A stretch of 37,376 nucleotides of DNA. Source: a virus. A model generated the notes under the pieces. That model saw only the letters and a list, made by a program, of their open reading frames with translations. It searched no databases and was not told where the DNA came from. The stretch is taken from the UHGV virus genome UHGV-0029172; one strand, 5' to 3'. Made by a program: the position numbers and the translations under genes. How positions within the stretch are numbered: the first letter of the stretch is position 1; each line of letters opens with the position of its first letter. Shown piece after piece: positions 2,617 to 31,397 of the stretch.

Positions 2617-4869
2617 TTATAAATAGAGATAGTTCGGCGGTTCTCCTGTTTTCCCTAAAAGAAGAGCGCTACGCCCAGGAATATTGATATTTAGAGTTCC
2701 GCCTCTAAGCGTAAATACTTTACCAGGGGGGATAATTTTTCGGGTATTATTAATAATAATGTTAACGCTATTACTCCCCATGTTTTTGTATATTCCAGGT
2801 TGCAATTTGTTAGGCCAGGTACCTTCAACTTCTTCGTTTCCTTTATTTATTATAACTAGTCCATCATGAGGAGAGTGATTAATGTTCACAGAATCCCCAC
2901 GACTAAAGGCCAGAACGTTTTTAGTTGCAGATACACCCTCAAATGCGCTCCATATTCCTGCTTTATCTATATATAATGCGTGGAATTCATTGTAGAGCTG
3001 CTGATAGGTAGAGCAACCTTTATTAAGCTACGCCTCACCGCCGACACGCGTGGACCCATCATAATTTTTAATTTCAGTCGTTGATTTTAATACTTGGCCA
3101 TCCCAGTAAACTAAAGGCCTGCTGAACGGCAGAGCGGCTATATATGCCATTGCTAATTGTTCATCTTGTTGATGGTTAAATAGAAAGTCATTGAAAAGAT
3201 TACCATTGTTAGGAAAATCGTGGTTAATGTTAATCAATATCCGTCTTTCTGATGGGATACTTGAGATTGTGGAACCCGGTTTTGATGCAAGGGTTTGAAG
3301 ATCTCCACCAAATGAAAAGGCTTTTATCGTTTTCATGAGCAATGAAAAATCAATGGCGCTTAAATCATCTCTTTCATAAAGCAGTGATGACATTTGTTGT
3401 TCATCCAACTGACAAGTTACCAGATATTCCATGTAATTCATAACGGCTTTTTTATGATATTTTGGGTTAAATAAGTTAGTATTGTGTAACCGCTCATTAT
3501 AATTTTTAAGCGGTGGGGTTATTGATCTTTCTATTTGTTCATGTTTTGAGTGTTTTGCCGCATCATAACGTAAACCTCGTACGCCATATTTTCGCATTTC
3601 ACGAACGTATTGATTTTGCAACATAATAACCTGGTCACTTTTGGGTGTTGTTTTAGGCATTCCATTTAAACGCTTTTCTTTTAATGCATGGAGGTTTTCC
3701 CATTCATCCTTAGAGATGTTATCTTTACTTGCTTCGAAGTCTTTTGCAGTGAGATGTATATCTTCTGGATGGATTTGTTTACGTTCTTTTGTTACTGGAT
3801 CTTTAATGAATGGAATCAAAACCTGACCTTGCTAATAGCCAGGGATACCACCTTCTATATCTTTACTGATCTTCGCTCGTATATCAGCAGAGGGATAATC
3901 CAGGTCATTTTTACCACTACCCCCAATTCCCATAAAGTTAAAGGTATAATCAGGAATGATATCGATACCAAATTTTTTAGCATCTTTAACCAATGCAATA
4001 AAATCCTGCAAATCTCCCATTGGATTATGGATGGTACAAAGATCTTCGGGTTGATAAGCATGAAACCAGTAACCCTTTTCTTCTTCGGGAGTTTCTGGTC
4101 CGTCGGCGCGGAAAGTTGTCACTGGAGGGATTTGTATATACCCATAATGGCAACGTGCAAATTCAGACATATTTTCTCTGATCTGCTGGTAGGTGGCATT
4201 AAAAGCATGAAGAATCGCTTCGCCAGGTTTTTTGGGGGTGATGATTTCACATTGTGATTTCTGAACAGCAGTAAGAGATTTACGCTCAAGTGTTTGCCGT
4301 AGATGTTCTAGATTGATTAATATTTTAAATGTTTCTTGCTGTCCGGAAGGTGACGTCACGTTAATATTATATACATCGGCTGCCAGCTCATAGTCAGGAA
4401 TGTTAATAGCATATGCAACATATTTATCTTTTGGGGAAGGTTTGTCAGATATAATGTGGGTGAAATGTTCAGCACGACCATACTGATAAACACCGCTGTT
4501 ATCACCTCTTTCAATCATTGTATCTCGTTGATAAACCTATGTTTTTCTTTCTCCTATCCTGTCTGGCGCTGTAATGCTACGCTGTGCTGCTTTATTCAAC
4601 TCTCGGTAAGTTGTATCTGGAGAAAGGGAAATTTTATAATCGTTTTTTAACAGATCATTAATAACTTTTTCTGCGTGAAAAGTTGATATAATTTCTCTGT
4701 CTTTTAATCCTTGAGGGTAAACTCCACAAGAATTAATAATATTTGTTATACAGTTTAGATATTCTAATGTATTTAATTTGGAATTTAGATCCCCGTCAGT
4801 AATGTTCCATGATAACAATGTGGGGTTGTCGATAGGTAAATTTCTGGATCCTGGTTTTATAGAAAACAT
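2617..4869 (-). pseudogene. ygaQ: ygaQ-like gene disrupted by three in-frame amber (TAG) codons (at 3028-3030, 3832-3834, 4537-4539)
   Basis: Four track ORFs (4537..4869, 3832..4518, 3028..3819, 2617..2889) all lie in the same minus-strand frame (coordinates congruent mod 3); no other stop seen between 2890 and 3027; E. coli K-12 ygaQ is a multi-fragment pseudogene at this position next to csiD (recalled). Confidence 0.7.
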
Positions 4870-5950: not shown

Positions 5951-7120
5951 TTATTCATCATCCGATTCCGCGCTGTACTCAACATCAGAGAGTTTAACCT
6001 CAAGCTCTAAGCCCGTCGTGAAGCCGCCACCGTTCAGATTGTGAGTCACCTTACTGATTAACCATGATTGCTCGTCTATGACGCGCTTAAAGCCTGACAC
6101 GCGCACCGGTACCTCAGGGAATAAATCAGCCCTGCCAAGCGCCAGCGTAATTGAAAACTCCGCAACGCCTCGCTGCAGCTTATCCCACTTAGCCTGAGCG
6201 GCGCGCATCGCCTGCGCCTTAGAAGCGTAGACAGTCGTCAGCGCCAGCACGTTATCGGCCTCGCCGGCCATATACTCACCCTCGCGCGCCTCCGGCTCTT
6301 TTTTGGCCTTTGTCTTTTTGCTGACCGGCTTTGCTTTCGGGTGCTCCAGTGCGCGCAGGTGTTTCTCTTTTGGCTTACGTTTCAGCGTTACTTTCTGCTT
6401 TTGCGGTTTCGGGTCTTTGGTGTGCAACCATTTTGCCGTTACGCCGGTATAAGCCCCACGGTCAGCAATGGCAAACTGGTGACGGTCGCCATCGCTGCGG
6501 GTCAGCGTCATTTGCGGGACGGGTTTACCGCTGGCCGTCATCGCACTACCGGCTTTCAGAAACAGGAGTTTCCCCGCTTTCACTGACACCGCTGCCCCAT
6601 TGCGGTCAGCCAGCCGGGTCAGAAATACGGCGTCGGACTCCTGCGACTGGTCGATATGCGGCACCGGTATTTTTTTCAGTGAATCCGCGACACTGGCCGT
6701 CAGTTTATTGCGCTTTGCAATGGTGCTGACCAGCTCACCGAGGGTGGTGTCGTGCCACGATTCTTCACGCCGTGAATTGAGCGTTCCGCGAAAGTCTGCA
6801 CTACGCGCCCGGATGGTCAGGGTATCAGGCGCGCCCCGATGCTCAATCTCATCGACCGTGAAATCGCCCTTATTCAGAAGCGCGGAACCCTGCCACCCAA
6901 GCCACAGCGTGAGCACCGCCCCGCGCAGGGGTAACTCGACTTTGCCGTCAGTGTCGTCGAGCTCAATGTCGAGCTGGTCAGCCTCAAAACCCCGATTGTC
7001 GGTCATGGTAAGAGAAATCAGCCGGTCGCTAAAATTGCTGGTAATGTCCTGGCTGTTCAGTGTCAGCATAAACGCCGGTGCAAGGCTGGTACCGGCATCA
7101 ATAGTCATACCCGTAATCAT
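5951..7120 (-). CDS. D: tail protein D (late control D family)
   Basis: 389-aa ORF, position and size as P2 gpD; ATGA overlap with U stop. Confidence 0.85.
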   Translation of the reverse strand: MITGMTIDAGTSLAPAFMLTLNSQDITSNFSDRLISLTMTDNRGFEADQLDIELDDTDGKVELPLRGAVLTLWLGWQGSALLNKGDFTVDEIEHRGAPDTLTIRARSADFRGTLNSRREESWHDTTLGELVSTIAKRNKLTASVADSLKKIPVPHIDQSQESDAVFLTRLADRNGAAVSVKAGKLLFLKAGSAMTASGKPVPQMTLTRSDGDRHQFAIADRGAYTGVTAKWLHTKDPKPQKQKVTLKRKPKEKHLRALEHPKAKPVSKKTKAKKEPEAREGEYMAGEADNVLALTTVYASKAQAMRAAQAKWDKLQRGVAEFSITLALGRADLFPEVPVRVSGFKRVIDEQSWLISKVTHNLNGGGFTTGLELEVKLSDVEYSAESDDE

Positions 7121-7602
7121 GCTGTCAGCCCTCCGAGCGCACCCTGCAGCTTATCAGTGAGATTACCGGCAGAGCCGAGAAGCTCGCTGGCCTGCTTATT
7201 CAGGTCGCCAAACATTGCCGTCAGTGATTCGTCGACCCGTTTCAGCGAAAGGGTGAAATCAATCTTTCTGGCCGCGCCGTCGCTGAAAAACTCAGCATGC
7301 GTGGTCGACACCTTATCGACGATATACATCCCGAAGATATTGCCGGTTCCCTCAATAAGCGGCCATGCTCTGCCCTCGTCGGCCATCAGCTCAACAGCCA
7401 GCAGGGATATTCGACCGCCGGTAATAGCAGGGTAAAGCGTACCGGCAAGCTGGATCGAGTTCTCCCCCTCGCCGAGAAATTGATATGCAGGAGGTTTACC
7501 GACCCGGTCATTAGACGCCCAGCGATAATCTTTCGAGTGTTGCATCGACTGATAAGGCAGGGTGCGGCGTTCAAACACAAACATTCCAAGCGCAAGCATC
7601 AT
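7117..7602 (-). CDS. U: tail protein U
   Basis: 161-aa ORF between T and D as in P2. Confidence 0.85.
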   Translation of the reverse strand: MMLALGMFVFERRTLPYQSMQHSKDYRWASNDRVGKPPAYQFLGEGENSIQLAGTLYPAITGGRISLLAVELMADEGRAWPLIEGTGNIFGMYIVDKVSTTHAEFFSDGAARKIDFTLSLKRVDESLTAMFGDLNKQASELLGSAGNLTDKLQGALGGLTA

Positions 7603-22475: not shown

Positions 22476-24245
22476 ATGACCATTTCCACCGATACCACCT
22501 TGTTGCATGACCCGCGACGGCAGGCATCACTGCTTTACTGGCAGGGCTTTTCCGTGCCACAGATTGCCGAAATGCTGCAGGTCAAGCGCCCGACCGTGCA
22601 GAGCTGGAAGCAGCGCGACGGCTGGGACGGCATCGCGCCGATTTCCCGCGTCGAAAGCAGCCTTGAGGCGCGTCTGATTCAGCTCATCGCCAAGCCGCAA
22701 AAATCAGGCGGCGACTTCAAAGAAATTGACCTGCTCGGGCGGCAGATTGAGCGGCTGGCGCGCGTTAACCGCTACAGCCAGACCGGCAACGAGGTCGACC
22801 TAAACCCCAATGTCGCCAACCGCAATAAAGGTGAGCGCAAGAAGCCGAAAAAGAATTTTTTCAGTGACGAGGCTATCGATAAACTGGAGGAACTATTTTT
22901 CGACCAGTCTTTCGAGTACCAGTTGCAGTGGTACCGCGCAGGGCTGGCGCACCGTATTCGCGACATCCTCAAATCCCGCCAGATTGGCGCGACGTTCTAT
23001 TTCTCCCGCGAGGCGCTGCTGCGCGCGCTCAAGACCGGCCATAACCAAATCTTTCTGTCGGCCAGTAAAACGCAGGCTTACGTGTTCCGCGAGTACATAA
23101 TCCAGTTTGCGCGGCTGGTCGACGTCGACCTGACCGGCGACCCGATTGTCATCGGCAACAACGGCGCAAAGCTGATTTTTCTCGGTACCAATTCCAACAC
23201 CGCGCAGAGCCATAACGGCGACCTGTATGTCGATGAAATATTCTGGATCCCGAATTTTCAGAAGCTGCGCAAAGTCGCGTCGGGCATGGCCTCGCAGAAG
23301 CACCTGCGCTCGACCTACTTTTCGACACCTTCCACGCTGGCGCACGGCGCTTACCCCTTCTGGTCTGGCGAACTGTTCAACAAGGGGCGCAGCCGTATTG
23401 CCGACCGCATCGAAATCGACATCAGTCACAGCGCGCTCGCCGGTGGCCAGCTCTGCGACGATGGCCAGTGGCGGCAGATTGTCACTATTGAGGATGCGCT
23501 TGCCGGTGGCTGCACCCTGTTCGACCTCGACCAACTCAAACGCGAAAACAGTGATGATGATTTTAAGAACCTGTTTCTTTGCGAGTTTGTCGACGATAAA
23601 GCGTCGGTATTCCCGTTCGAGGAGCTGCAGCGCTGCATGGTCGATGTGATGGAAGAATGGGAGGACTTTGCTCCGTTCGCCGACCATCCTTTCGGCTCGC
23701 GCCCGGTCTGGATTGGATACGACCCGTCACACACCGGCGACAGCGCCGGGTGCGTCGTGCTTGCACCGCCGGTCGTCTCGGGTGGCAAGTTCCGCATGCT
23801 GGAGCGCCAGCAGTGGAAAGGCATGGACTTTGCCGCTCAGGCCGAGGGCATCCGCAAGCTGACCGAGAAATACAACGTCGAATATATCGGCATTGACGCA
23901 ACCGGCCTCGGTCTCGGCGTCTTCCAGTTGGTGCGCTCATTCTACCCGGCGGCACGCGGCATTCGTTACACGCCTGAAATGAAAACCGCGATGGTACTCA
24001 AGGCAAAAGATACCATTCGCCGCGGTTGTCTGGAGTACGACGCCGGGGCGACCGACGTCACACAGTCGTTTATGTCCATCCGCAAAACCATGACCAGCAG
24101 CGGGCGCAGCGCCACCTACGAGGCCAGCCGCACCGAGGAAGCCAGTCACGCCGATATCGCATGGGCGACCATGCACGCCCTGTTAAACGAACCGCTTTCC
24201 GCCGGTAGCGGCATGCAGCCTAAATCTATTCTGGAGTTCAACTAA
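22476..24245 (+). CDS. P: terminase large (ATPase) subunit P
   Basis: 589-aa ORF; N-terminus MTISTDTTLLHDPRRQASLLYWQGFSVPQIAEM like P2 gpP (recalled); Walker-A-like KSRQIGAT. Confidence 0.9.
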   Translation: MTISTDTTLLHDPRRQASLLYWQGFSVPQIAEMLQVKRPTVQSWKQRDGWDGIAPISRVESSLEARLIQLIAKPQKSGGDFKEIDLLGRQIERLARVNRYSQTGNEVDLNPNVANRNKGERKKPKKNFFSDEAIDKLEELFFDQSFEYQLQWYRAGLAHRIRDILKSRQIGATFYFSREALLRALKTGHNQIFLSASKTQAYVFREYIIQFARLVDVDLTGDPIVIGNNGAKLIFLGTNSNTAQSHNGDLYVDEIFWIPNFQKLRKVASGMASQKHLRSTYFSTPSTLAHGAYPFWSGELFNKGRSRIADRIEIDISHSALAGGQLCDDGQWRQIVTIEDALAGGCTLFDLDQLKRENSDDDFKNLFLCEFVDDKASVFPFEELQRCMVDVMEEWEDFAPFADHPFGSRPVWIGYDPSHTGDSAGCVVLAPPVVSGGKFRMLERQQWKGMDFAAQAEGIRKLTEKYNVEYIGIDATGLGLGVFQLVRSFYPAARGIRYTPEMKTAMVLKAKDTIRRGCLEYDAGATDVTQSFMSIRKTMTSSGRSATYEASRTEEASHADIAWATMHALLNEPLSAGSGMQPKSILEFN

Positions 24246-24246
24246 A

Positions 24247-25293
24247 ATGGGTAAGCAAAAATCCCGTAAAGCCGCTGCGCAGAAGGCCAGCAAGCCACAA
24301 CACCTGACCGCCAGCGCACCGCCAAAAACGACAGCGTTCACCTTCGGCGAGCCGGTGCCGGTGCTGGATAAACGCGACATTCTGGATTACGTCGAGTGCA
24401 TCAGCAACGGCAAATGGTACGAGCCGCCGGTCAGCTTCTCCGGGCTGGCAAAGAGCCTGCGCTCTGCTGTACATCACAGTTCACCGATTTACGTTAAGCG
24501 CAACGTGCTCGCGAGCACCTACATTCCGCACCCGTTGTTGTCCCGTCAGGATTTCAGCCGCTTTGCACTCGACTATCTGGTATTCGGCAACGCCTTTCTT
24601 GAGCAGCGCCACAGCGTCACCGGCCAGTTAATCAAACTACTTGCCTCACCGGCTAAATACACCCGACGTGGGGTCGACGATTCGATTTTCTGGTTTGTGG
24701 AAAACTTCACTCTACCGCACGAGTTCGCGCCTGATACCGTGTTTCACCTGCTGGAGCCCGATATCAATCAGGAGATTTACGGCCTGCCCGAATATCTCAG
24801 CGCACTTAACTCCGCCTGGCTAAATGAAGCCGCGACGCTGTTCCGACGCAAGTATTACCAGAACGGCGCACACGCAGGTTACATCATGTATGTGACCGAC
24901 CCGGCGCAGAGTGCGACCGACGTCGAATCGCTGCGCGAGGCGATGCGCAACTCGAAAGGGCTCGGCAACTTTAAGAACCTGTTTTTCTATGCCCCCGGCG
25001 GAAAACCGGACGGCATCAAAATCGTGCCACTGAGCGAGGTCGCCACAAAGGATGACTTTTTCAACATCAAGAAAGCCAGCGCTGCCGACCTGATGGACGC
25101 GCACCGCGTTCCGTTCCAGCTCATGGGCGGCAAGCCCGAGAATATCGGCTCACTCGGTGACGTTGAGAAGGTGGCAAGGGTCTTTGTGCGTAACGAGCTG
25201 TCGCCCCTGCAGGACAGGTTCAGGGAGGTAAACGACTGGCTCGGCATGGAGGTCATCAGATTCAAAGAGTACAGCCTTGATAATCCTGAGTAA
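24247..25293 (+). CDS. Q: portal vertex protein Q
   Basis: 348-aa ORF downstream of P, reading toward cos as in P2. Confidence 0.85.
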   Translation: MGKQKSRKAAAQKASKPQHLTASAPPKTTAFTFGEPVPVLDKRDILDYVECISNGKWYEPPVSFSGLAKSLRSAVHHSSPIYVKRNVLASTYIPHPLLSRQDFSRFALDYLVFGNAFLEQRHSVTGQLIKLLASPAKYTRRGVDDSIFWFVENFTLPHEFAPDTVFHLLEPDINQEIYGLPEYLSALNSAWLNEAATLFRRKYYQNGAHAGYIMYVTDPAQSATDVESLREAMRNSKGLGNFKNLFFYAPGGKPDGIKIVPLSEVATKDDFFNIKKASAADLMDAHRVPFQLMGGKPENIGSLGDVEKVARVFVRNELSPLQDRFREVNDWLGMEVIRFKEYSLDNPE

Positions 25294-25299
25294 TCCAAT

Positions 25300-25322
25300 A
25301 AAGCCGCCATTTTGGCGGCTTT
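25300..25322. terminator. bidirectional intrinsic terminator between convergent Q and the 74-aa gene
   Basis: aaagccgcca-ttt-tggcggcttt, 10-bp stem flanked by A/T runs, sits between stops at 25291-25293 and 25330-25332. Confidence 0.6.
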
Positions 25323-25329
25323 ATTGCCA

Positions 25330-25554
25330 TCAGCCTTTAGATTTTTTGGGGTCATCTTTTCGCTGGTAAGTACGCTCTTCCTGAATCTTTCCGTCCTCAG
25401 TATGAATTTTTACTGAGCCAGTCTTAGTAGACATGTAATCCTGCATCTCTTTGATGACTTCAGCCTTAGTCGCTGCTGTCTTGCTTGGCCGTTCATTTCC
25501 TACCTTTTGAAACTTCCACTTATCACCATCTTTTGTAATGTGGTAGTTATCCAT
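25330..25554 (-). CDS. small basic hydrophilic protein of unknown function (possibly DUF2188-like)
   Basis: 74-aa ORF with strong GGAGG RBS 7 nt upstream of ATG; lies between cos and Q, a position with no gene in P2 (recalled); lower G+C than neighbours by eye. Confidence 0.6.
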   Translation of the reverse strand: MDNYHITKDGDKWKFQKVGNERPSKTAATKAEVIKEMQDYMSTKTGSVKIHTEDGKIQEERTYQRKDDPKKSKG

Positions 25555-25780
25555 TAAAGCCTCCAGCTGTTGGTGGGGAACATGACATACCGATGAAGAT
25601 AATAACGAAAGCGCAGCCGTAGAATTGTGCGACTGATCTCACCCTAACGCATCGCTCCATAGACAAGCCATAGCCTCACGATCGCGCCAGACCACCAACG
25701 AGCCAGTAACTATCTCTTTAGCTCCACCACGACGCACTTAGACGGTATTTTTCAATAATCAGCACCAACGCTGGCGCGCA

Positions 25781-25799
25781 ATGCTTTCCCCGCCACGCC
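25781..25799. other. cos site (cohesive end), reverse complement GGCGTGGCGGGGAAAGCAT
   Basis: 19-mer atgctttccccgccacgcc read directly; matches recalled P2/186 cos cohesive-end sequence; located between Q and the A-side variable region as expected. Confidence 0.7.
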
Positions 25800-25971
25800 T
25801 GCCCGCTTTATGGGTCGAAATTAATGCAGTTGCATGACCACCAGGGATCCGCGCCAGCTCTGGTGGCACACTGCCAGAACGAGCAACCATGACGCATGCA
25901 AAACCATGCATCTGTTGCATGCATCGTTAATGAGTCGAGTTATAAGAATTAAATGTTAGAGAAATTTAAAC

Positions 25972-26850
25972 CTAATTATCTATCTCCGAACGAAGCAAAC
26001 TTACGTGTTTAGTATCGACAGGTAACGGCTTCGGAGCATGGTTTAATCCTTGATAAGATACATACGCGCTTGCTATTGATGCGACTGCGCTTGCCACCGC
26101 GACGATTACAGAAAGGATAGTAGCTATGCGCATTGTTCTCTGACCGGATTTGTCATCACTATAGCGCTGTTCATCTTTGTTAAAATGGCTAAGGGTATTC
26201 ATCGCTTTCCCTACAGGTTTGTATCCAGCTTGTGATTCCGAAATATCACCATTTTCCACAAGTGAATCTAGACAAAGACGTAATTCTTTTTTCATTCTTT
26301 CATTATCATCATGGTGAATCCATAGCTTACCAGCCACATCATCCATAATTAAATATTGACTAAAAGGTGCCTCACCTTCTTGCTCGCGATAAATTCTAAC
26401 TATAGAGGCTAAGACCGCCATTGTATCTGTGATTTCTTTTTTCTGTTGACGATACAAATAACTTTCACGACTAAACTTATTATTTTGATAATCTGAATCT
26501 CGCCTAAATCTAAACTCTCGCAGCCACGTCAAATCATTGAGAGACTGAAACTTTAGCTCATGTGCGTGGTAATAATAAATACCTGAGAAAGATTCAGGAA
26601 CTAGTTCATCAGGAACAAGCTCTGAATCTATATTAAATCGACTTTCCTCAGAATCCCATCTCCTTGCGCGAATCACCCCATTAACAAATCTATCAAAAAG
26701 ATACTCACCACCATCACCAGCCTTGATATAAACAGAATACATATCATAATGGATTGCATTTTCATACATTAAACTAATGCGTCCGTTATCTGGAGTTCTT
26801 TTCTTTTCGAACTTTTTTAAATGCTTAATAATACTATTGCCTGCTAACAT
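25972..26850 (-). CDS. tail-anchored membrane protein of unknown function (C-terminal TM helix), cargo gene 2 of variable-region module
   Basis: ORF 25972..26952 (GTG start, no RBS); start placed at ATG 26848-26850 with AGGTGG RBS; C-terminal hydrophobic MRIATILSVIVAVASAVASIASAYVSY; AT-rich by eye. Confidence 0.6.
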   Translation of the reverse strand: MLAGNSIIKHLKKFEKKRTPDNGRISLMYENAIHYDMYSVYIKAGDGGEYLFDRFVNGVIRARRWDSEESRFNIDSELVPDELVPESFSGIYYYHAHELKFQSLNDLTWLREFRFRRDSDYQNNKFSRESYLYRQQKKEITDTMAVLASIVRIYREQEGEAPFSQYLIMDDVAGKLWIHHDDNERMKKELRLCLDSLVENGDISESQAGYKPVGKAMNTLSHFNKDEQRYSDDKSGQRTMRIATILSVIVAVASAVASIASAYVSYQGLNHAPKPLPVDTKHVSLLRSEIDN

Positions 26851-26969
26851 TAGAACCACCTGAATGTATTTAGCATTAAATAAAATCTTGCCTTTACTAG
26901 CGCCTCGCATTGCTCGTTGTTCAACCCTGCCAGCACTGAAAACAAGTTTCACCGCTGGCAGCGTTTATA

Positions 26970-27701
26970 TTAATTATCGAGTATTGAAACGACCTCACCC
27001 GTTCGCACATCTACACGCGCCGCTACGGTCTGTTTGACCACCGCACCATAAGCATTTGTGCCGCGAAACGTAGTTTTTACAATGGCATGTGGGTCTTTAT
27101 TCAAAATCAGATGATAGACCGTTGAGACGTGCTTATAAGAGGAATCATCATTCATGCTGGCTTTTATCTGCTTTTCTAACGGGCGATAAGAACCATCCCA
27201 ACCGCTAAAATTATCCTTAAATGCATCGAGATTGATTTTATCATTCAGCGATTTTGGATCCTTCTCGAAGTCGTTGAAACACCAACCCAACACATCACCG
27301 AGCTTTAACGCATCATCTTTAGTAAAAGTGTACTCACTCATACAGGCATAAAAAGCGTCAGCAGAGCTGGCCGGTACACTTTTGAAATCAACATAATCTT
27401 TAACGATATCGTGCCGGGTTTCTTTCGGCTCATTGCGATATTCTTTAAGAGTTTTATCAGCATACTCAAACGTTGGTGTAACCGGTGCCGCTTCAACCGC
27501 CGGTATGTCAGTTTTTGCTACAGGCTGACTTTTTTCAGTCGGCCATAAGATTGACCCAAGGACGCTCAGCGCCAGACAACCGCCGAAATAAACTGCACTG
27601 GAGCGTTTACGATTCGGCATCCGAACCAGCGACGGCTTGATGAGACCAACGATAAAAGCAATAAAGAGCGCCAGAGATAAAAATGCAATTACGGTATCCA
27701 T
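26970..27701 (-). CDS. membrane protein of unknown function (two N-terminal TM helices, about 190-aa C-terminal domain), cargo gene 1
   Basis: 243-aa ORF, ATG at 27699-27701 with AAGGA RBS; TM1 VIAFLSLALFIAFIVGLI, basic loop, TM2 VYFGGCLALSVLGSILW; AT-rich by eye. Confidence 0.65.
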   Translation of the reverse strand: MDTVIAFLSLALFIAFIVGLIKPSLVRMPNRKRSSAVYFGGCLALSVLGSILWPTEKSQPVAKTDIPAVEAAPVTPTFEYADKTLKEYRNEPKETRHDIVKDYVDFKSVPASSADAFYACMSEYTFTKDDALKLGDVLGWCFNDFEKDPKSLNDKINLDAFKDNFSGWDGSYRPLEKQIKASMNDDSSYKHVSTVYHLILNKDPHAIVKTTFRGTNAYGAVVKQTVAARVDVRTGEVVSILDN

Positions 27702-27783
27702 GATTTTCCTTTGTGTGTAATCCCCATAAAAAACAACCCCATGCTATCAAACATGAGGTCAAGGTTTGTACATTTTTCAGGAA

Positions 27784-28197
27784 CTAACGCCAGCTCTCAT
27801 CTTCCCATACTTCCTGAAGGATACTATCAAGCGCTTCGCGGTCTGAATCCTTATCGAACCCCATCAGCTCGACGCCGGTCATGGACCCCTTTTTAACAGT
27901 AACCCGCGTTGACGGGAAAACAGACTGTATTCTCCTAGTCAATTCGCATTGAAAAGCTTCAATTACCGGCTGGCCTATTTTTTGGTCTTTATCTAACGTG
28001 ATATTTACTTTCACATTGCCAACCTTTGCAAAAGTTTCATCTACAGGCGGCGCGGAAAAAACAACAGAAAAATTATTGTTTTTCATCAGGTTGCCCTGTG
28101 CTATCTCCGCTATAAGATTCAATGCGATTTCACGGTCTCTTTCCTGGCAAGCACCTTCAGCCGTAAGGCGCGCAATCATTTCGACCCGTTCAATCAT
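27784..28197 (-). CDS. tum: Tum-like SOS-inducible antirepressor with DinI-like C-terminal domain
   Basis: C-terminal ...ELTRRIQSVFPSTRVTVKKGSMTGVELMGF...ILQEVWEDESW resembles DinI (recalled); start set to first ATG downstream of the LexA box (ORF track start is GTG at 28266, which would contain the operator); start uncertain. Confidence 0.65.
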   Translation of the reverse strand: MIERVEMIARLTAEGACQERDREIALNLIAEIAQGNLMKNNNFSVVFSAPPVDETFAKVGNVKVNITLDKDQKIGQPVIEAFQCELTRRIQSVFPSTRVTVKKGSMTGVELMGFDKDSDREALDSILQEVWEDESWR

Positions 28198-28244
28198 AAC
28201 GTGCTCGTTTAGTTCTCTATCCACACAACCCCCACTACGAGATA

Positions 28245-28260
28245 CTGTATAAATACACAG
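28245..28260. promoter_or_regulatory. LexA (SOS) box CTGTATAAATACACAG
   Basis: Perfect CTGT-N8-ACAG palindrome read directly, about 50 bp upstream of the tum-like ATG. Confidence 0.75.
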
Positions 28261-28341
28261 TATCACGTATCGGTAAAAGGTGTGAAGAAAAAATCACGGT
28301 TAAATACACTGTATGTACATGATAAGGATGAATATTAACGA

Positions 28342-30570
28342 CTATATTTTCGTTGCCAGCTCCGCTAAAGCCGCGACACGACTGAGGATTTTCCTAGCTT
28401 TAGCCTGATGCGATGGCGCTGCGGAAAATAATTCGCCTTTTGCCGTTCCTCGCAGCCATTTGCCGTCAAAACAGCTTTTACCACCTGCCATCAGATGCAG
28501 GGCTTCTCCACGGCTGATGGTTACGCCGGTTGTCAGGTGTATCTCGTCGATGGTTTTCTCTATCGCGCCGTTTTGCTCATCCCTTCCGTGGATGAATTTT
28601 CTCCGTATCCCCAGCCTTTTCTTCCTTAGTCGATTTGTCAGCTCACGCCTTTCGCGTCGACTTAGAGGTTTTGATAAATCGTGTTCCGGTGGATCGCTTT
28701 CGCTTCCCGTACAGTTATTGACAGAACTCCGAGAGGGCGCAGGAGCGCCCTTAACGTCAACGGCCAAATCAACGGCACGCTTCGGCACAATTTTCCACTG
28801 CGTTAGCCGGGTTAAAATCGGGGTACCAGCACCGACAGCAGAATCGTACACGCCACGGATGCAGACGGTTTCCTCACCATACTGGTTAAACTCGGCGCGC
28901 GGTTCATACAGCGTGCGCACCTGCAAATCTTCGCGACGGACAAACGGGCCACCCTGCGCATTAACGTAACCAGCCCAGTCACCGGCGTCAGCGGCATCAT
29001 GGACGGCAGCAAATTCAACGCTCAGACCGTGCGCGGTCTCGGTATCGGCGAGACGACGCAATTCACGGTAGACCGTCACCGGCGCACCGCCGATAAACTG
29101 GAATTGACGGATGTGCCAGCGCGCCGCCCATGCTGATACAGCGGGGGCTGTCTCTTTCAGCAGCTCACCGCTTTCGTCATCGGTTTCACCATCAAGAGCA
29201 TAGCCGTCGATATTTTTCGAAATGTATTTAGCAACATAGCCGGTAGCGCTGCCTTTTTCCGGGTCAATGGCCTCGGCATGAAAGCGCGCTTTTTTGGCTT
29301 TATCGCTTCTCAGTTCGTGGCGGTCTTCCTCCCACGCATAATCACGGATGATGAGGCGCACGCGCTCGACGTCTTCCGGCAACATGAACATAAGCATGTG
29401 CCAGTGAGGCGTTCCGTCGTGATGAGGCTCGGCAACACGGATGCCGAAAATGCGGATTTCTTCCCGATGTAACTTGGCACGAATGCGCGCCCAAAGGCCG
29501 GTGAGATAACTCTGTGTGTCCGACGGGCTGGCTCCTTTCCATTTGGTGTTACGGTAACCCGCCTTAGTTGTGGCGTGATATTTTGACGGCGCGGTCAGGG
29601 TATAAAACTCACCGACATAACCGAGCTCATTGCAGATATTTTCAAACCCACGGATGCGGGTCATCAGCTCGCAGCGACGTATCGCAGGGTTAGCGACCGA
29701 GCCATCGTATTTTTCAATCAGGCTGATGCGGTTGCCGTCTTCGTCTTCGAGATCCAGCCCCTTGAGAAATTCACGCGTGCGGCGCTTCTGCTCGCGCCAG
29801 TCGGTCACGCAGTTTTTACTCGCGTAGACATGTCTTTTCTTGCTGACGTTTCCAGCGGCAATGTGCAGGTGTTCGCGCCATGCAGCCGCAATGCGACGCA
29901 GACGACCACGCCACCACACCTCGTTAAACATGCGGGTGATAGCCGGGGCAATTTCATCCTCGCCGACATATTTCTTTGTCACCCGCTCCCAATGTGGCGG
30001 GGTAACATTGAATTGCAGGGAGATAATACCTGCGCGCATATACCAGGTGTACAGCGTTTTAAGCTCGCTAAATCCGGTGTCATCAATGTCAGCCAGTTCA
30101 GCCAGTTCAGCACGAATGAAATTAGCGATATCAGCAGCCAGCAAGTCAATATCGGCGCGCGACATATCAGGGAGGCGGTTATATCTGGCAACCATATTAA
30201 CCATGCGTGACGCCAGATATTGCATAAGCTGGGTATCAAAATGACCACCAAAAACAGCGGTTGATACATTGCTGTTGATACCCGTGCACTCGTATTTTTT
30301 TGCGACCAGTTCAAGACGTGGCAATGCCTTTTTGCAGAAGCTGATTAAAAAGGCATTGGCTCGTTGACTGCCCTGATTTTGCTCCAGCACAGCAGCGGTG
30401 CGATAAACGTCAAAACGCACGCACTCGGGCTGGAGAGAAAGCACTTTTCTCGCATGTAGCAAAGCCGCAAACATACGGTCGCGGCGATGCTGTTGGTCAT
30501 AAGTAAGATATGGGCTGGCTATTGCCGACCGTGGAGCATTCCATGGGTATGCAAACGTATATTTCGTCAT
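28342..30570 (-). CDS. A: replication initiation protein A (rolling-circle nickase)
   Basis: 742-aa ORF at P2/186 gene A position; ATG 30568-30570 overlaps stop of upstream gene (ATGA). Confidence 0.85.
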   Translation of the reverse strand: MTKYTFAYPWNAPRSAIASPYLTYDQQHRRDRMFAALLHARKVLSLQPECVRFDVYRTAAVLEQNQGSQRANAFLISFCKKALPRLELVAKKYECTGINSNVSTAVFGGHFDTQLMQYLASRMVNMVARYNRLPDMSRADIDLLAADIANFIRAELAELADIDDTGFSELKTLYTWYMRAGIISLQFNVTPPHWERVTKKYVGEDEIAPAITRMFNEVWWRGRLRRIAAAWREHLHIAAGNVSKKRHVYASKNCVTDWREQKRRTREFLKGLDLEDEDGNRISLIEKYDGSVANPAIRRCELMTRIRGFENICNELGYVGEFYTLTAPSKYHATTKAGYRNTKWKGASPSDTQSYLTGLWARIRAKLHREEIRIFGIRVAEPHHDGTPHWHMLMFMLPEDVERVRLIIRDYAWEEDRHELRSDKAKKARFHAEAIDPEKGSATGYVAKYISKNIDGYALDGETDDESGELLKETAPAVSAWAARWHIRQFQFIGGAPVTVYRELRRLADTETAHGLSVEFAAVHDAADAGDWAGYVNAQGGPFVRREDLQVRTLYEPRAEFNQYGEETVCIRGVYDSAVGAGTPILTRLTQWKIVPKRAVDLAVDVKGAPAPSRSSVNNCTGSESDPPEHDLSKPLSRRERRELTNRLRKKRLGIRRKFIHGRDEQNGAIEKTIDEIHLTTGVTISRGEALHLMAGGKSCFDGKWLRGTAKGELFSAAPSHQAKARKILSRVAALAELATKI

Positions 30571-31397
30571 GCGATAGCCAACTCCAGTTGAAGCGGAGCC
30601 AACCCTTTTGATAGCCAGTTTTCAATCGATGGAGGGGATACGGCCTCAATAGTATTTTTCAGAATGGCGCAACGGCGTTTGAGAATGACGGCTTTAAGTT
30701 CATCTTCAGAAAGGTTTTTCGCATAATCGGCTTCGCGAATTGCTTTTGTGAGCTCCGGGTATTTGACTTCGAATTTCGGCACATTACAGGCAAGGTTTGT
30801 GCTGTCGGCAGTCGCCAAAGGATAGTTACCCAAAACCCTACCATCGAGCATGCGGAGCCCGTGCACCTGCGTTGAGAAACTATGTTTGCAGTAAATGGTT
30901 TCAAACGCTTCTGACATCCTGCGATGCCAGAGCTGGGTTCTGATAGTTGCGTACTCACCTGACGACCCAAAGCACACGCGCGGCCACTCCCGGCAAAGCT
31001 CAACCAGACGGTGCAATGATTCATGCAAATGCCAGACTGGCGCAGCTTTGTCTTTGAAACAGCGTGGTAATTTGGCGATAAGTGCGTCATTGTCAGCTTC
31101 GCCACCTTCAACCACATCAGGGATAACAAAAAATGACAGCTTGGGATGGTGATAATAAGGAATCAGCCATTGATAGAATTGCTGCCAGTCAATAACAAGG
31201 CCACGCTTCCACGCTGAAAAAGCTCCATTATCTATAGCAACAGAGAGGGCGTATTTAATTGATGCAGCTAATTGGTCAGGACGTGCATACGATACAAATG
31301 CGCCAGCACCGGTGACCGCAATACGGTGAACGTTACCGGCGTCACCCCATACAGGTGTTCCGTGGTAATGAGTAACGTCTGCCACGCCCTTAACCAT
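30567..31397 (-). CDS. early-operon protein of unknown function, translationally coupled to A
   Basis: 276-aa ORF, ATG at 31395-31397; no motif I can assign confidently. Confidence 0.6.
   Translation of the reverse strand: MVKGVADVTHYHGTPVWGDAGNVHRIAVTGAGAFVSYARPDQLAASIKYALSVAIDNGAFSAWKRGLVIDWQQFYQWLIPYYHHPKLSFFVIPDVVEGGEADNDALIAKLPRCFKDKAAPVWHLHESLHRLVELCREWPRVCFGSSGEYATIRTQLWHRRMSEAFETIYCKHSFSTQVHGLRMLDGRVLGNYPLATADSTNLACNVPKFEVKYPELTKAIREADYAKNLSEDELKAVILKRRCAILKNTIEAVSPPSIENWLSKGLAPLQLELAIA

Follow-up and report, generated by a model that had tools for sequence, protein, structure and literature searches.

The window analysed here is the whole of a 37,376-nucleotide stretch of DNA, UHGV virus genome UHGV-0029172, which is a complete phage-186-like prophage (Peduoviridae, Eganvirus-type) and is present as an identical sequence on NCBI contig SRMV01000042.1 (assembly GCA_004767495.1). 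The subject of this report is a pair of genes lying in the same direction on the minus strand within positions 25972-27701, one encoding a protein of 243 residues and the other a protein of 292 residues that is referred to here as X292. The best overall explanation of the data is probably that the two are independent single-gene units in an Eganvirus-like prophage: by its sequence and operon setting the 243-residue gene is orthologous to orf97 of phage 186, which comes second in an operon under LexA repression (p95 - tum - t95a - orf97), and X292 is a separate piece of cargo. There is little doubt about the orthology of Orf97 and its independence from X292, and as little about the status of X292 as cargo of a known hotspot, where it is a plausible candidate anti-phage or exclusion gene that can be swapped separately.

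An earlier note, made from the letters of the sequence alone, had described the same stretch as a two-gene membrane-protein cargo module, and much of that description has been borne out. The genes are co-directional and poorer in G+C (0.443 for orf97 and 0.378 for X292) than the structural-gene backbone (0.572), their sizes are as proposed, hydropathy places two transmembrane (TM) segments at the N-terminus of one product and a single segment at the C-terminus of the other, and both genes lie between a DinI-family tum upstream and the cohesive-end site cos (Table 1). What has not survived is the module itself, for the reasons set out below, and the statement that no named family was recognised in either protein holds for X292, which matches no defence family, but not for the 243-residue protein, which is Orf97 of 186. 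The note had itself pointed to homology with a conserved 186 gene of the orf97 type as the contrary outcome, and this is what was found for the 243-residue gene, whereas the 292-residue gene proved to be swappable cargo.

The identification of orf97 draws on protein, DNA and operon structure. Alignment with 186 Orf97 (NP_052294.1) by BLASTP gave 216 identical residues out of 243 (89%, E = 1e-169), and the two proteins, which are of equal length, fall in the same PHROG, phrog_3403, which the window protein matches at E = 9.6e-141 over positions 1-243 of 243. Window positions 26897-28300 align with phage 186 by megablast at 89% DNA identity across orf97 and tum. The phage 186 record, NC_001317.1, annotates p95, a LexA site, tum, the partial terminator t95a, orf97 and the terminator t95b, and in the window a p95-like promoter can be read with a -35 hexamer TTCACA at 28286-28281 and a -10 hexamer GATACT at 28264-28259, together with a consensus LexA box TACTGTGTATTTATACAGTA at 28262-28243 and a t95a-like terminator at 27761-27734; tum is present as a 146-residue gene call on contig SRMV01000042.1. 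A paper by Brumby and colleagues (1996, Virology 219:105) is reportedly associated with the tum-orf97 SOS operon of phage 186. Grouped at 90% identity, the Orf97 family has over 160 clusters, which are spread through Enterobacterales, and in all 80 of the IMG/VR loci examined the gene 5' of orf97 was tum or, in the P2-like lineage, a small hypothetical gene. A ratio of nonsynonymous to synonymous substitution (dN/dS) of 0.03-0.13 indicates purifying selection. Since orf97 is kept across the 186-like phages it is a conserved accessory gene and not variable cargo.

An important consideration is whether Orf97 and X292 could depend on each other as an obligate two-gene system of defence or exclusion, in which, for instance, a periplasmic sensor would be paired with a cytoplasmic, membrane-anchored effector. 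The arrangement in the window lends itself to such a proposal, as the genes are adjacent and co-directional, their coding regions are 119 bp apart and no terminator with a U-run is present between them; furthermore, the pair is seen on at least three backbones, those of the window, of 186-like loci and of P2-like loci (E. coli IHE3034). Two surveys of IMG/VR loci bear on the matter, one of 36 X292 loci, of which 32 were informative and four undetermined (truncated or unresolved), and the other of the 80 Orf97 loci. The left neighbour of X292 was Orf97 in 19 of the informative loci, Tum directly in five, the gene-A region in four and a type VI retron in four; intact X292 without Orf97 was found in at least 13 of the 32, with three different left neighbours and including precise deletions of orf97. 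Orf97 was accompanied by X292 in 17 of its 80 loci and occurred without it in the other 63, as it does in phage 186, where Orf97 alone gives an exclusion phenotype. P2-like loci (E. coli IHE3034) have a strong intrinsic terminator between orf97 and X292. The divergence of the two proteins is also discordant. In comparison with its closest backbone relatives, L019 and L020, the window has identities of 92-97% in A, Tum, portal and terminase and of 89% in Orf97; for X292 the figure falls to 62%, with saturation at synonymous sites, and the X292 allele therefore differs in history from its flanks. The two were, moreover, curated separately by Rousset et al. 2022. Adjacency in 19 of the 32 informative loci is to be expected anyway, because nearly all 186-like phages carry Orf97 and the slot for cargo comes immediately after it. 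An obligate two-gene system is largely excluded by these distribution data, and it would now be very surprising if the pair turned out to be one.

Hydropathy analysis of Orf97 gave two TM segments, at residues 1-29 and 34-53, followed by a C-terminal domain of ~190 residues. The loop between the helices, KPSLVRMPNRKRSS, has five positive charges and no negative ones (+5/0), and because of this positive loop an N-out, C-out topology with a periplasmic C-terminal domain is predicted. Residues C120 and C141 are invariant among 40 homologues, which would fit a periplasmic, disulphide-bonded domain, and the product is predicted to be an inner-membrane protein, here called bitopic, with its C-terminal domain facing the periplasm. 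The 186 record carries the comment "expression from plasmid blocks 186 infection" for Orf97. Taken together with the predicted topology, this phenotype makes it most likely that Orf97, once induced by the SOS response, excludes superinfecting phages at the envelope, no later than the entry of their DNA; the block to infection is documented for 186, and the stage is one that we infer. Searches of the literature for orf97 by name, by protein accessions and by PHROG identifiers gave passing mention at most. An exclusion or abortive-infection function had been suggested in the earlier note for both membrane proteins; for Orf97 it is on record in the GenBank entry of 186, and for X292 it is suggested by location.

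The gpA-gpQ, cos-proximal region is a defence hotspot of P2-like phages (Rousset et al. 2022, PMC9122126), as had been anticipated, and in the window this placement is seen in the position of X292 beside cos, between replication gene A and the portal gene. In an analysis of 18,150 gpA-gpQ loci in E. coli, Table S5B gives 210 occurrences ("2 TM") for system #12, which is an Orf97-like protein, and 62 ("1 TM") for system #68, which resembles X292; they are separate, unnamed, single-protein systems with no Pfam assignment, and the sequence of #12 is absent from the tested-systems table of that study (Rousset et al. 2022, PMC9122126). In the main, then, orf97 and the catalogued hotspot gene X292 were already known, and the question of their role was already visible in that catalogue.

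The survey of relatives showed the slot downstream of orf97 to be a swap site, as had been supposed. Across the 80 Orf97 loci the gap between orf97 and the portal gene ranged from ~490 bp (empty, as in 186) to ~2800 bp, and the stretch between orf97 and cos held at least 12 alternative cargo families, as single genes, with conserved borders. X292, wherever it occurred, was the last gene before cos and the portal gene (all 36 loci). The 973-bp X292 cassette is missing from phage 186 and from Yersinia Eganvirus phages, whose homology with the window ends at 26897 and restarts at 25923, and alignment with the right end of 186 showed that it stands in place of ~85 bp bearing the terminator t95b. 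The left border of the slot is a conserved non-coding segment of ~70 bp, comprising an RNA hairpin at 26965-26923 (fold energy -30.7 kcal/mol, z = -3.4, with G-U pairs and compensatory changes) and then the motif GGTTGAACAACGAGC..GCGAGGCGYTAG, which ends at 26897. In an alignment of 11 loci the sequences diverged right after this motif, which is where the cargo starts. The hairpin and motif follow orf97 in 186-like phages and are present upstream of X292 in L012, L013, L015, L016, L024, L039 and L041, and a diverged copy lies between the type VI retron and X292 in phages that have no orf97. The border may be a site of recombination, an mRNA 3' stabiliser or a processing site; a search of positions 25200-28400 against Rfam, hairpin included, gave no match. 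The right border is a cos-proximal hairpin with the stem CATGCA..TGCATG, which may also act as a weak terminator of X292. In the alignment, cos coincides exactly with the end of the linear phage 186 record.

Some of the alternative occupants of the slot could be classified. They include AbiP2 (E = 3e-162), an NsnA-like DUF262 protein and the candidates PDC-S31 and PDC-S64; two further proteins appear by eye to be HNH nuclease-like and several have no PADLOC model match. The commonest, found directly after the junction motif in 16 loci including L087, is a membrane protein of ~206 residues with two N-terminal TM helices, which belongs to phrog_16957 and has no PADLOC match. The frequency of this protein indicates that membrane proteins are recurrent occupants of the slot.

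The open reading frame (ORF) containing X292 extends over 25972-26952 and could be read as 326 residues from a GTG or as 292 residues from the ATG at 26850. The GTG start was rejected, because the additional 34 codons overlap non-coding DNA that is conserved even in 186, where there is no gene, and the ATG is preferred because the homologues begin there and a GGTGG ribosome-binding site lies 5 nt upstream. The protein has a single TM segment at 238-266, as judged by hydropathy, and with a C-terminal anchor and no signal peptide residues 1-237 are predicted to be cytoplasmic. Small residues (A, S, G) are abundant in the TM helix with i / i+4 spacing, and from this pattern the helix may oligomerise. 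Where dS could be computed dN/dS was ~0.13-0.15, indicating purifying selection; elsewhere dS was saturated. The window allele has a longer TM region and a tail of 26 residues past the helix (QGLNHAPKPLPVDTKHVSLLRSEIDN, 25972-26049), a feature common only to near-identical copies (P0001, L008) and to a Citrobacter braakii protein of 80% identity (P0002), the remaining family members terminating 3-5 residues past the TM helix. In some phages X292 is broken: in L105 the gene is divided between two ORFs (126 and 121 residues) in the gap after orf97, and in L043 it is truncated to 126 residues (6971-7351), which suggests occasional pseudogenisation.

X292 belongs to phrog_7611 (E = 7.7e-125). The close family consists of 27 clusters at 90% identity, all from Enterobacteriaceae and all annotated as "hypothetical", and an exhaustive HMMER search extended this to a superfamily of 304 representatives at 50% identity, of ~250-290 residues, which align end to end including the C-terminal TM segment. 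Members were found in Klebsiella, Enterobacter, Cronobacter and Buttiauxella, with one in Lactovum (a Firmicute); those of enterobacteria are carried by prophages, plasmids and chromosomes. Neither Orf97 nor X292 had a significant match in Pfam, NCBIfam or PADLOC; in PADLOC-DB v2.0.0 there were no families for Orf97, and the only hit for X292 was DruD (E = 0.0045, 14 bits), which is not significant. The outcome was no different for 77 diverse superfamily members, in which no Pfam domain exceeded the threshold, profile searches with three alignments found no match among PDB sequences, and a tblastn search of GenBank phage genomes with X292 found none. Single-sequence structure models had mean predicted local distance difference test (pLDDT) scores of 34.8 and 51.8 and were unusable. 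A catalytic or metal-binding role for the motif YYYHAHE was discounted, as relatives at 25-40% identity do not keep it.

The most conserved part of X292 is the juxtamembrane segment LxLxSLVxSGDLxxxxxxYxxTGKAxxTL...EERRH...Q, which is followed by the TM helix. It is possible to read this segment as the recognition helix and wing of a winged-helix domain. Residues ~140-225 gave sub-threshold matches to winged-helix families, namely HTH_45 in four of the 77 members (best E = 0.002) and HVO_A0261_N, and WH_III-A was matched, again below threshold, in one relative (E = 0.0034). Comparisons of the X292 family by hhalign with Rrf2 and LysR proteins, which served as winged-helix stand-ins, were not significant, the alignment with the Rrf2 protein bringing helix 3 and the wing into register at a probability of 0.08%.

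The transcription of X292 has a bearing on its role. A promoter scan found no promoter-like site directly upstream of X292 in the window, and since the cassette has displaced t95b the gene is probably read through from p95, so that X292 would be a third SOS-operon gene along with tum and orf97. Natural deletions of orf97 were observed in L022 (~6890-7000), L023 (~3970-4080) and L043 (~6890-7000), in which the ribosome-binding site and ATG of orf97 are fused a few bases 5' of the ribosome-binding site of X292; these deletions bring X292 up to second place in the SOS operon, immediately after t95a. In other contexts X292 lies behind a strong terminator or a retron and would need a promoter of its own. 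If in the window the SOS promoter is the only source of expression, an uninduced lysogen would not be protected and X292 would not be a constitutive defence here.

Most likely X292 is a single-gene exclusion or abortive-infection factor, and whether it acts against phages at all is a question on which belief and doubt are nearly balanced, with a slight leaning to doubt. In the scheme proposed, the cytoplasmic domain (~235 residues, with a charged linker after it) would detect at the membrane some component of a phage that is entering or replicating, and the TM helix would either hold the target there, giving exclusion, or oligomerise and compromise the membrane, giving abortive infection. An SOS-induced cell would thus deploy two membrane proteins, Orf97 facing the periplasm and X292 facing the cytoplasm. 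This specific membrane mechanism is decidedly doubtful. A more general proposal, that the superfamily is a widespread class of single-gene anti-phage proteins, tail-anchored in the inner membrane, in which a cytoplasmic domain, possibly a winged helix, traps phage DNA or protein and so blocks or aborts infection, is put forward tentatively and is on the whole unlikely as it stands.

It may instead be the case that X292 is not anti-phage and is a moron or a regulator that works for the prophage or its host, either as a membrane-tethered DNA-binding protein, perhaps of winged-helix type, by which DNA or a regulator is sequestered during SOS induction, or as a lysogenic-conversion factor that alters envelope physiology. 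The probable expression of X292 from the SOS operon, rather than constitutively, would suit such a role, as would the fact that in L022 and L023 it occupies the exact place of orf97 behind t95a, the weak winged-helix-like signature beside the TM helix and the failure to match any known defence model; furthermore, the P2 hotspot also holds non-defence cargo, including partition systems and a cytolethal distending toxin (PMC9122126). Against this, those occupants of the sub-slot that can be classified include AbiP2, the NsnA-like protein, PDC-S31 and PDC-S64, even if several others are without a PADLOC match, and distant relatives of X292 on plasmids and chromosomes adjoin HEPN, DUF2971, restriction-endonuclease, toxin-antitoxin, HNH and DUF4145 genes, which are defence-island-like neighbourhoods outside any prophage regulatory context. 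The deep divergence of X292 alleles, and their exchange between near-identical backbones, is also typical of conflict genes. A non-defence role is accordingly rated as unlikely, though by no means negligible.

A further possibility is that X292 is directed against P4-like satellites or is a counter-defence gene. It is always the gene nearest to cos, the sole region common to P2-like helpers and P4-like satellites, and defence and counter-defence genes are known to be mixed in the accessory hotspots of phages. There is, however, no specific evidence for such a function, the position of the slot's recombination borders accounts for the closeness of X292 to cos, and relatives are found on conjugative plasmids and in chromosomes that offer no helper or satellite context. 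This alternative is regarded as highly improbable, and an exclusion or abortive-infection factor is still preferred.

A number of points weigh against the interpretation favoured here. For Orf97, the exclusion phenotype is taken from the GenBank comment, and the fact that it adjoins X292 in most of the informative X292 loci leaves room for a facultative functional interaction between them. For X292, the case for an anti-phage role is built from location, architecture and conservation; the protein has neither a PADLOC model match nor a catalytic motif, the matches behind the winged-helix idea are all below threshold, expression confined to SOS induction fits classical prophage-encoded defence less well, and its sequence, like that of the Orf97-like system, is absent from the tested-systems table of Rousset et al. 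2022 (PMC9122126).

Table 1. Features of the window around orf97 and X292, with the elements that flank them.
Feature	Position	Strand	Basis
Large terminase gene	22476-24245	plus	
Portal gene	24247-25293	plus	
cos cohesive-end sequence, 19 nt, GGCGTGGCGGGGAAAGCAT on the minus strand	25781-25799		read directly
cos-proximal hairpin CATGCAACAGATGCATG then GTTTTGCATGCG, right slot border	25905-25921	minus	terminator scan; conserved in 186 and cargo-free relatives
Cargo cassette, 973 bp	25924-26896	minus	megablast breakpoints 25923 and 26897; alignment with 186 right end
X292, 292-residue tail-anchored membrane protein	25972-26850	minus	phrog_7611; TM 238-266; 26-residue C-terminal tail
Conserved non-coding segment after orf97, left slot border	26897-26965	minus	alignment of 11 loci
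orf97 orthologue, 243 residues, ATG	26970-27701	minus	BLASTP to 186 Orf97; phrog_3403
t95a-like partial terminator between tum and orf97	27724-27761	minus	terminator scan: 12-pair stem then TTTTTT; corresponds to t95a of 186
tum (DinI-family antirepressor), first SOS-operon gene	27784-28224	minus	Pfam DinI 2.2e-17; phrog_189; synteny with 186 tum
p95-like SOS promoter with overlapping LexA box	28243-28286	minus	promoter scan; direct reading; 89% alignment to annotated 186 p95/LexA site
Replication gene A	28342-30570	minus	

Two other genes in the neighbourhood were noted. Between cos and the portal gene, on the minus strand and convergent with the latter, lies a gene for a DUF2188 protein of 74 residues (25330-25554), which matches phrog_3220 and the PADLOC candidate single-gene defence family PDC-S16 (E = 2.4e-12). 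Some E. coli prophages have it, and phage 186 and most relatives are without it; on account of this patchy occurrence it seems to be a third accessory gene, with a sub-slot of its own across cos. Directly upstream of replication gene A, also on the minus strand, is a gene for 276 residues (30567-31397) that has no precomputed Pfam match and matches phrog_887, 'queuine tRNA-ribosyltransferase' (E = 8e-95, profile positions 10-310 of 509). To judge from that match it may be a TGT/DpdA-like accessory gene for DNA modification or anti-restriction.

If X292 does prove to be anti-phage it would represent a very compact (< 1 kb) single-gene, membrane-anchored defence system without a known domain, and the 186-like phages would be using the slot that follows orf97, itself downstream of an SOS promoter, to house cassettes of this sort. 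As regards Orf97, a predicted periplasmic domain with two invariant cysteines provides a concrete topology for a documented exclusion gene.

The closest of the known systems is that of phage 186 itself. The window Orf97 has the same length as its 186 counterpart, is 89% identical to it and stands in the same operon order, p95/LexA - tum - t95a - orf97; the exclusion phenotype is on record for the 186 allele and the window allele is likened to it by sequence. In 186 orf97 is followed by t95b and then cos, whereas in the window the X292 cassette takes the place of t95b. A second comparison is with the type VI retrons, as a homologue of X292 lies directly downstream of a reverse transcriptase (RT) and helix-turn-helix (HTH) pair in four IMG/VR loci and in ~10 E. 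coli genomes, the same layout being found in E. coli chromosomes. The matches to RT_VI (9e-106) and HTH_VI (2e-31) show that this retron is complete by itself, and X292 was rejected as its effector, an RT being adjacent in four of the 36 loci. Most X292 genes have no retron nearby and the junction motif falls between the RT gene and X292, so that the retron is better regarded as a neighbour in the hotspot. Membrane proteins that bring about superinfection exclusion include T4 Imm and P22 SieA. The membrane partners of abortive-infection (Abi) systems in P4 hotspots, such as the 1-TM protein of RT-nitrilase and the 3-TM protein of the HAD hydrolase system, are, like X292, small inner-membrane proteins of mobile-element defence hotspots, and Rousset et al. 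2022 (PMC9122126) regard the TM proteins of systems of this kind as probable suicide effectors. X292 differs from the Abi membrane effectors and from Imm and SieA in standing alone and in having one C-terminal anchor behind a large cytoplasmic domain, and has no homology to them. There remains the cargo of the old/tin hotspot of P2, with which X292 shares a place beside cos, a low G+C content, a single-gene organisation and many replacements in relatives. X292 has no sequence relationship to Old, Tin or the validated systems, and is set apart from the P2 hotspot cargo by its position in a defined sub-slot downstream of orf97, where it is probably read through from the SOS promoter.

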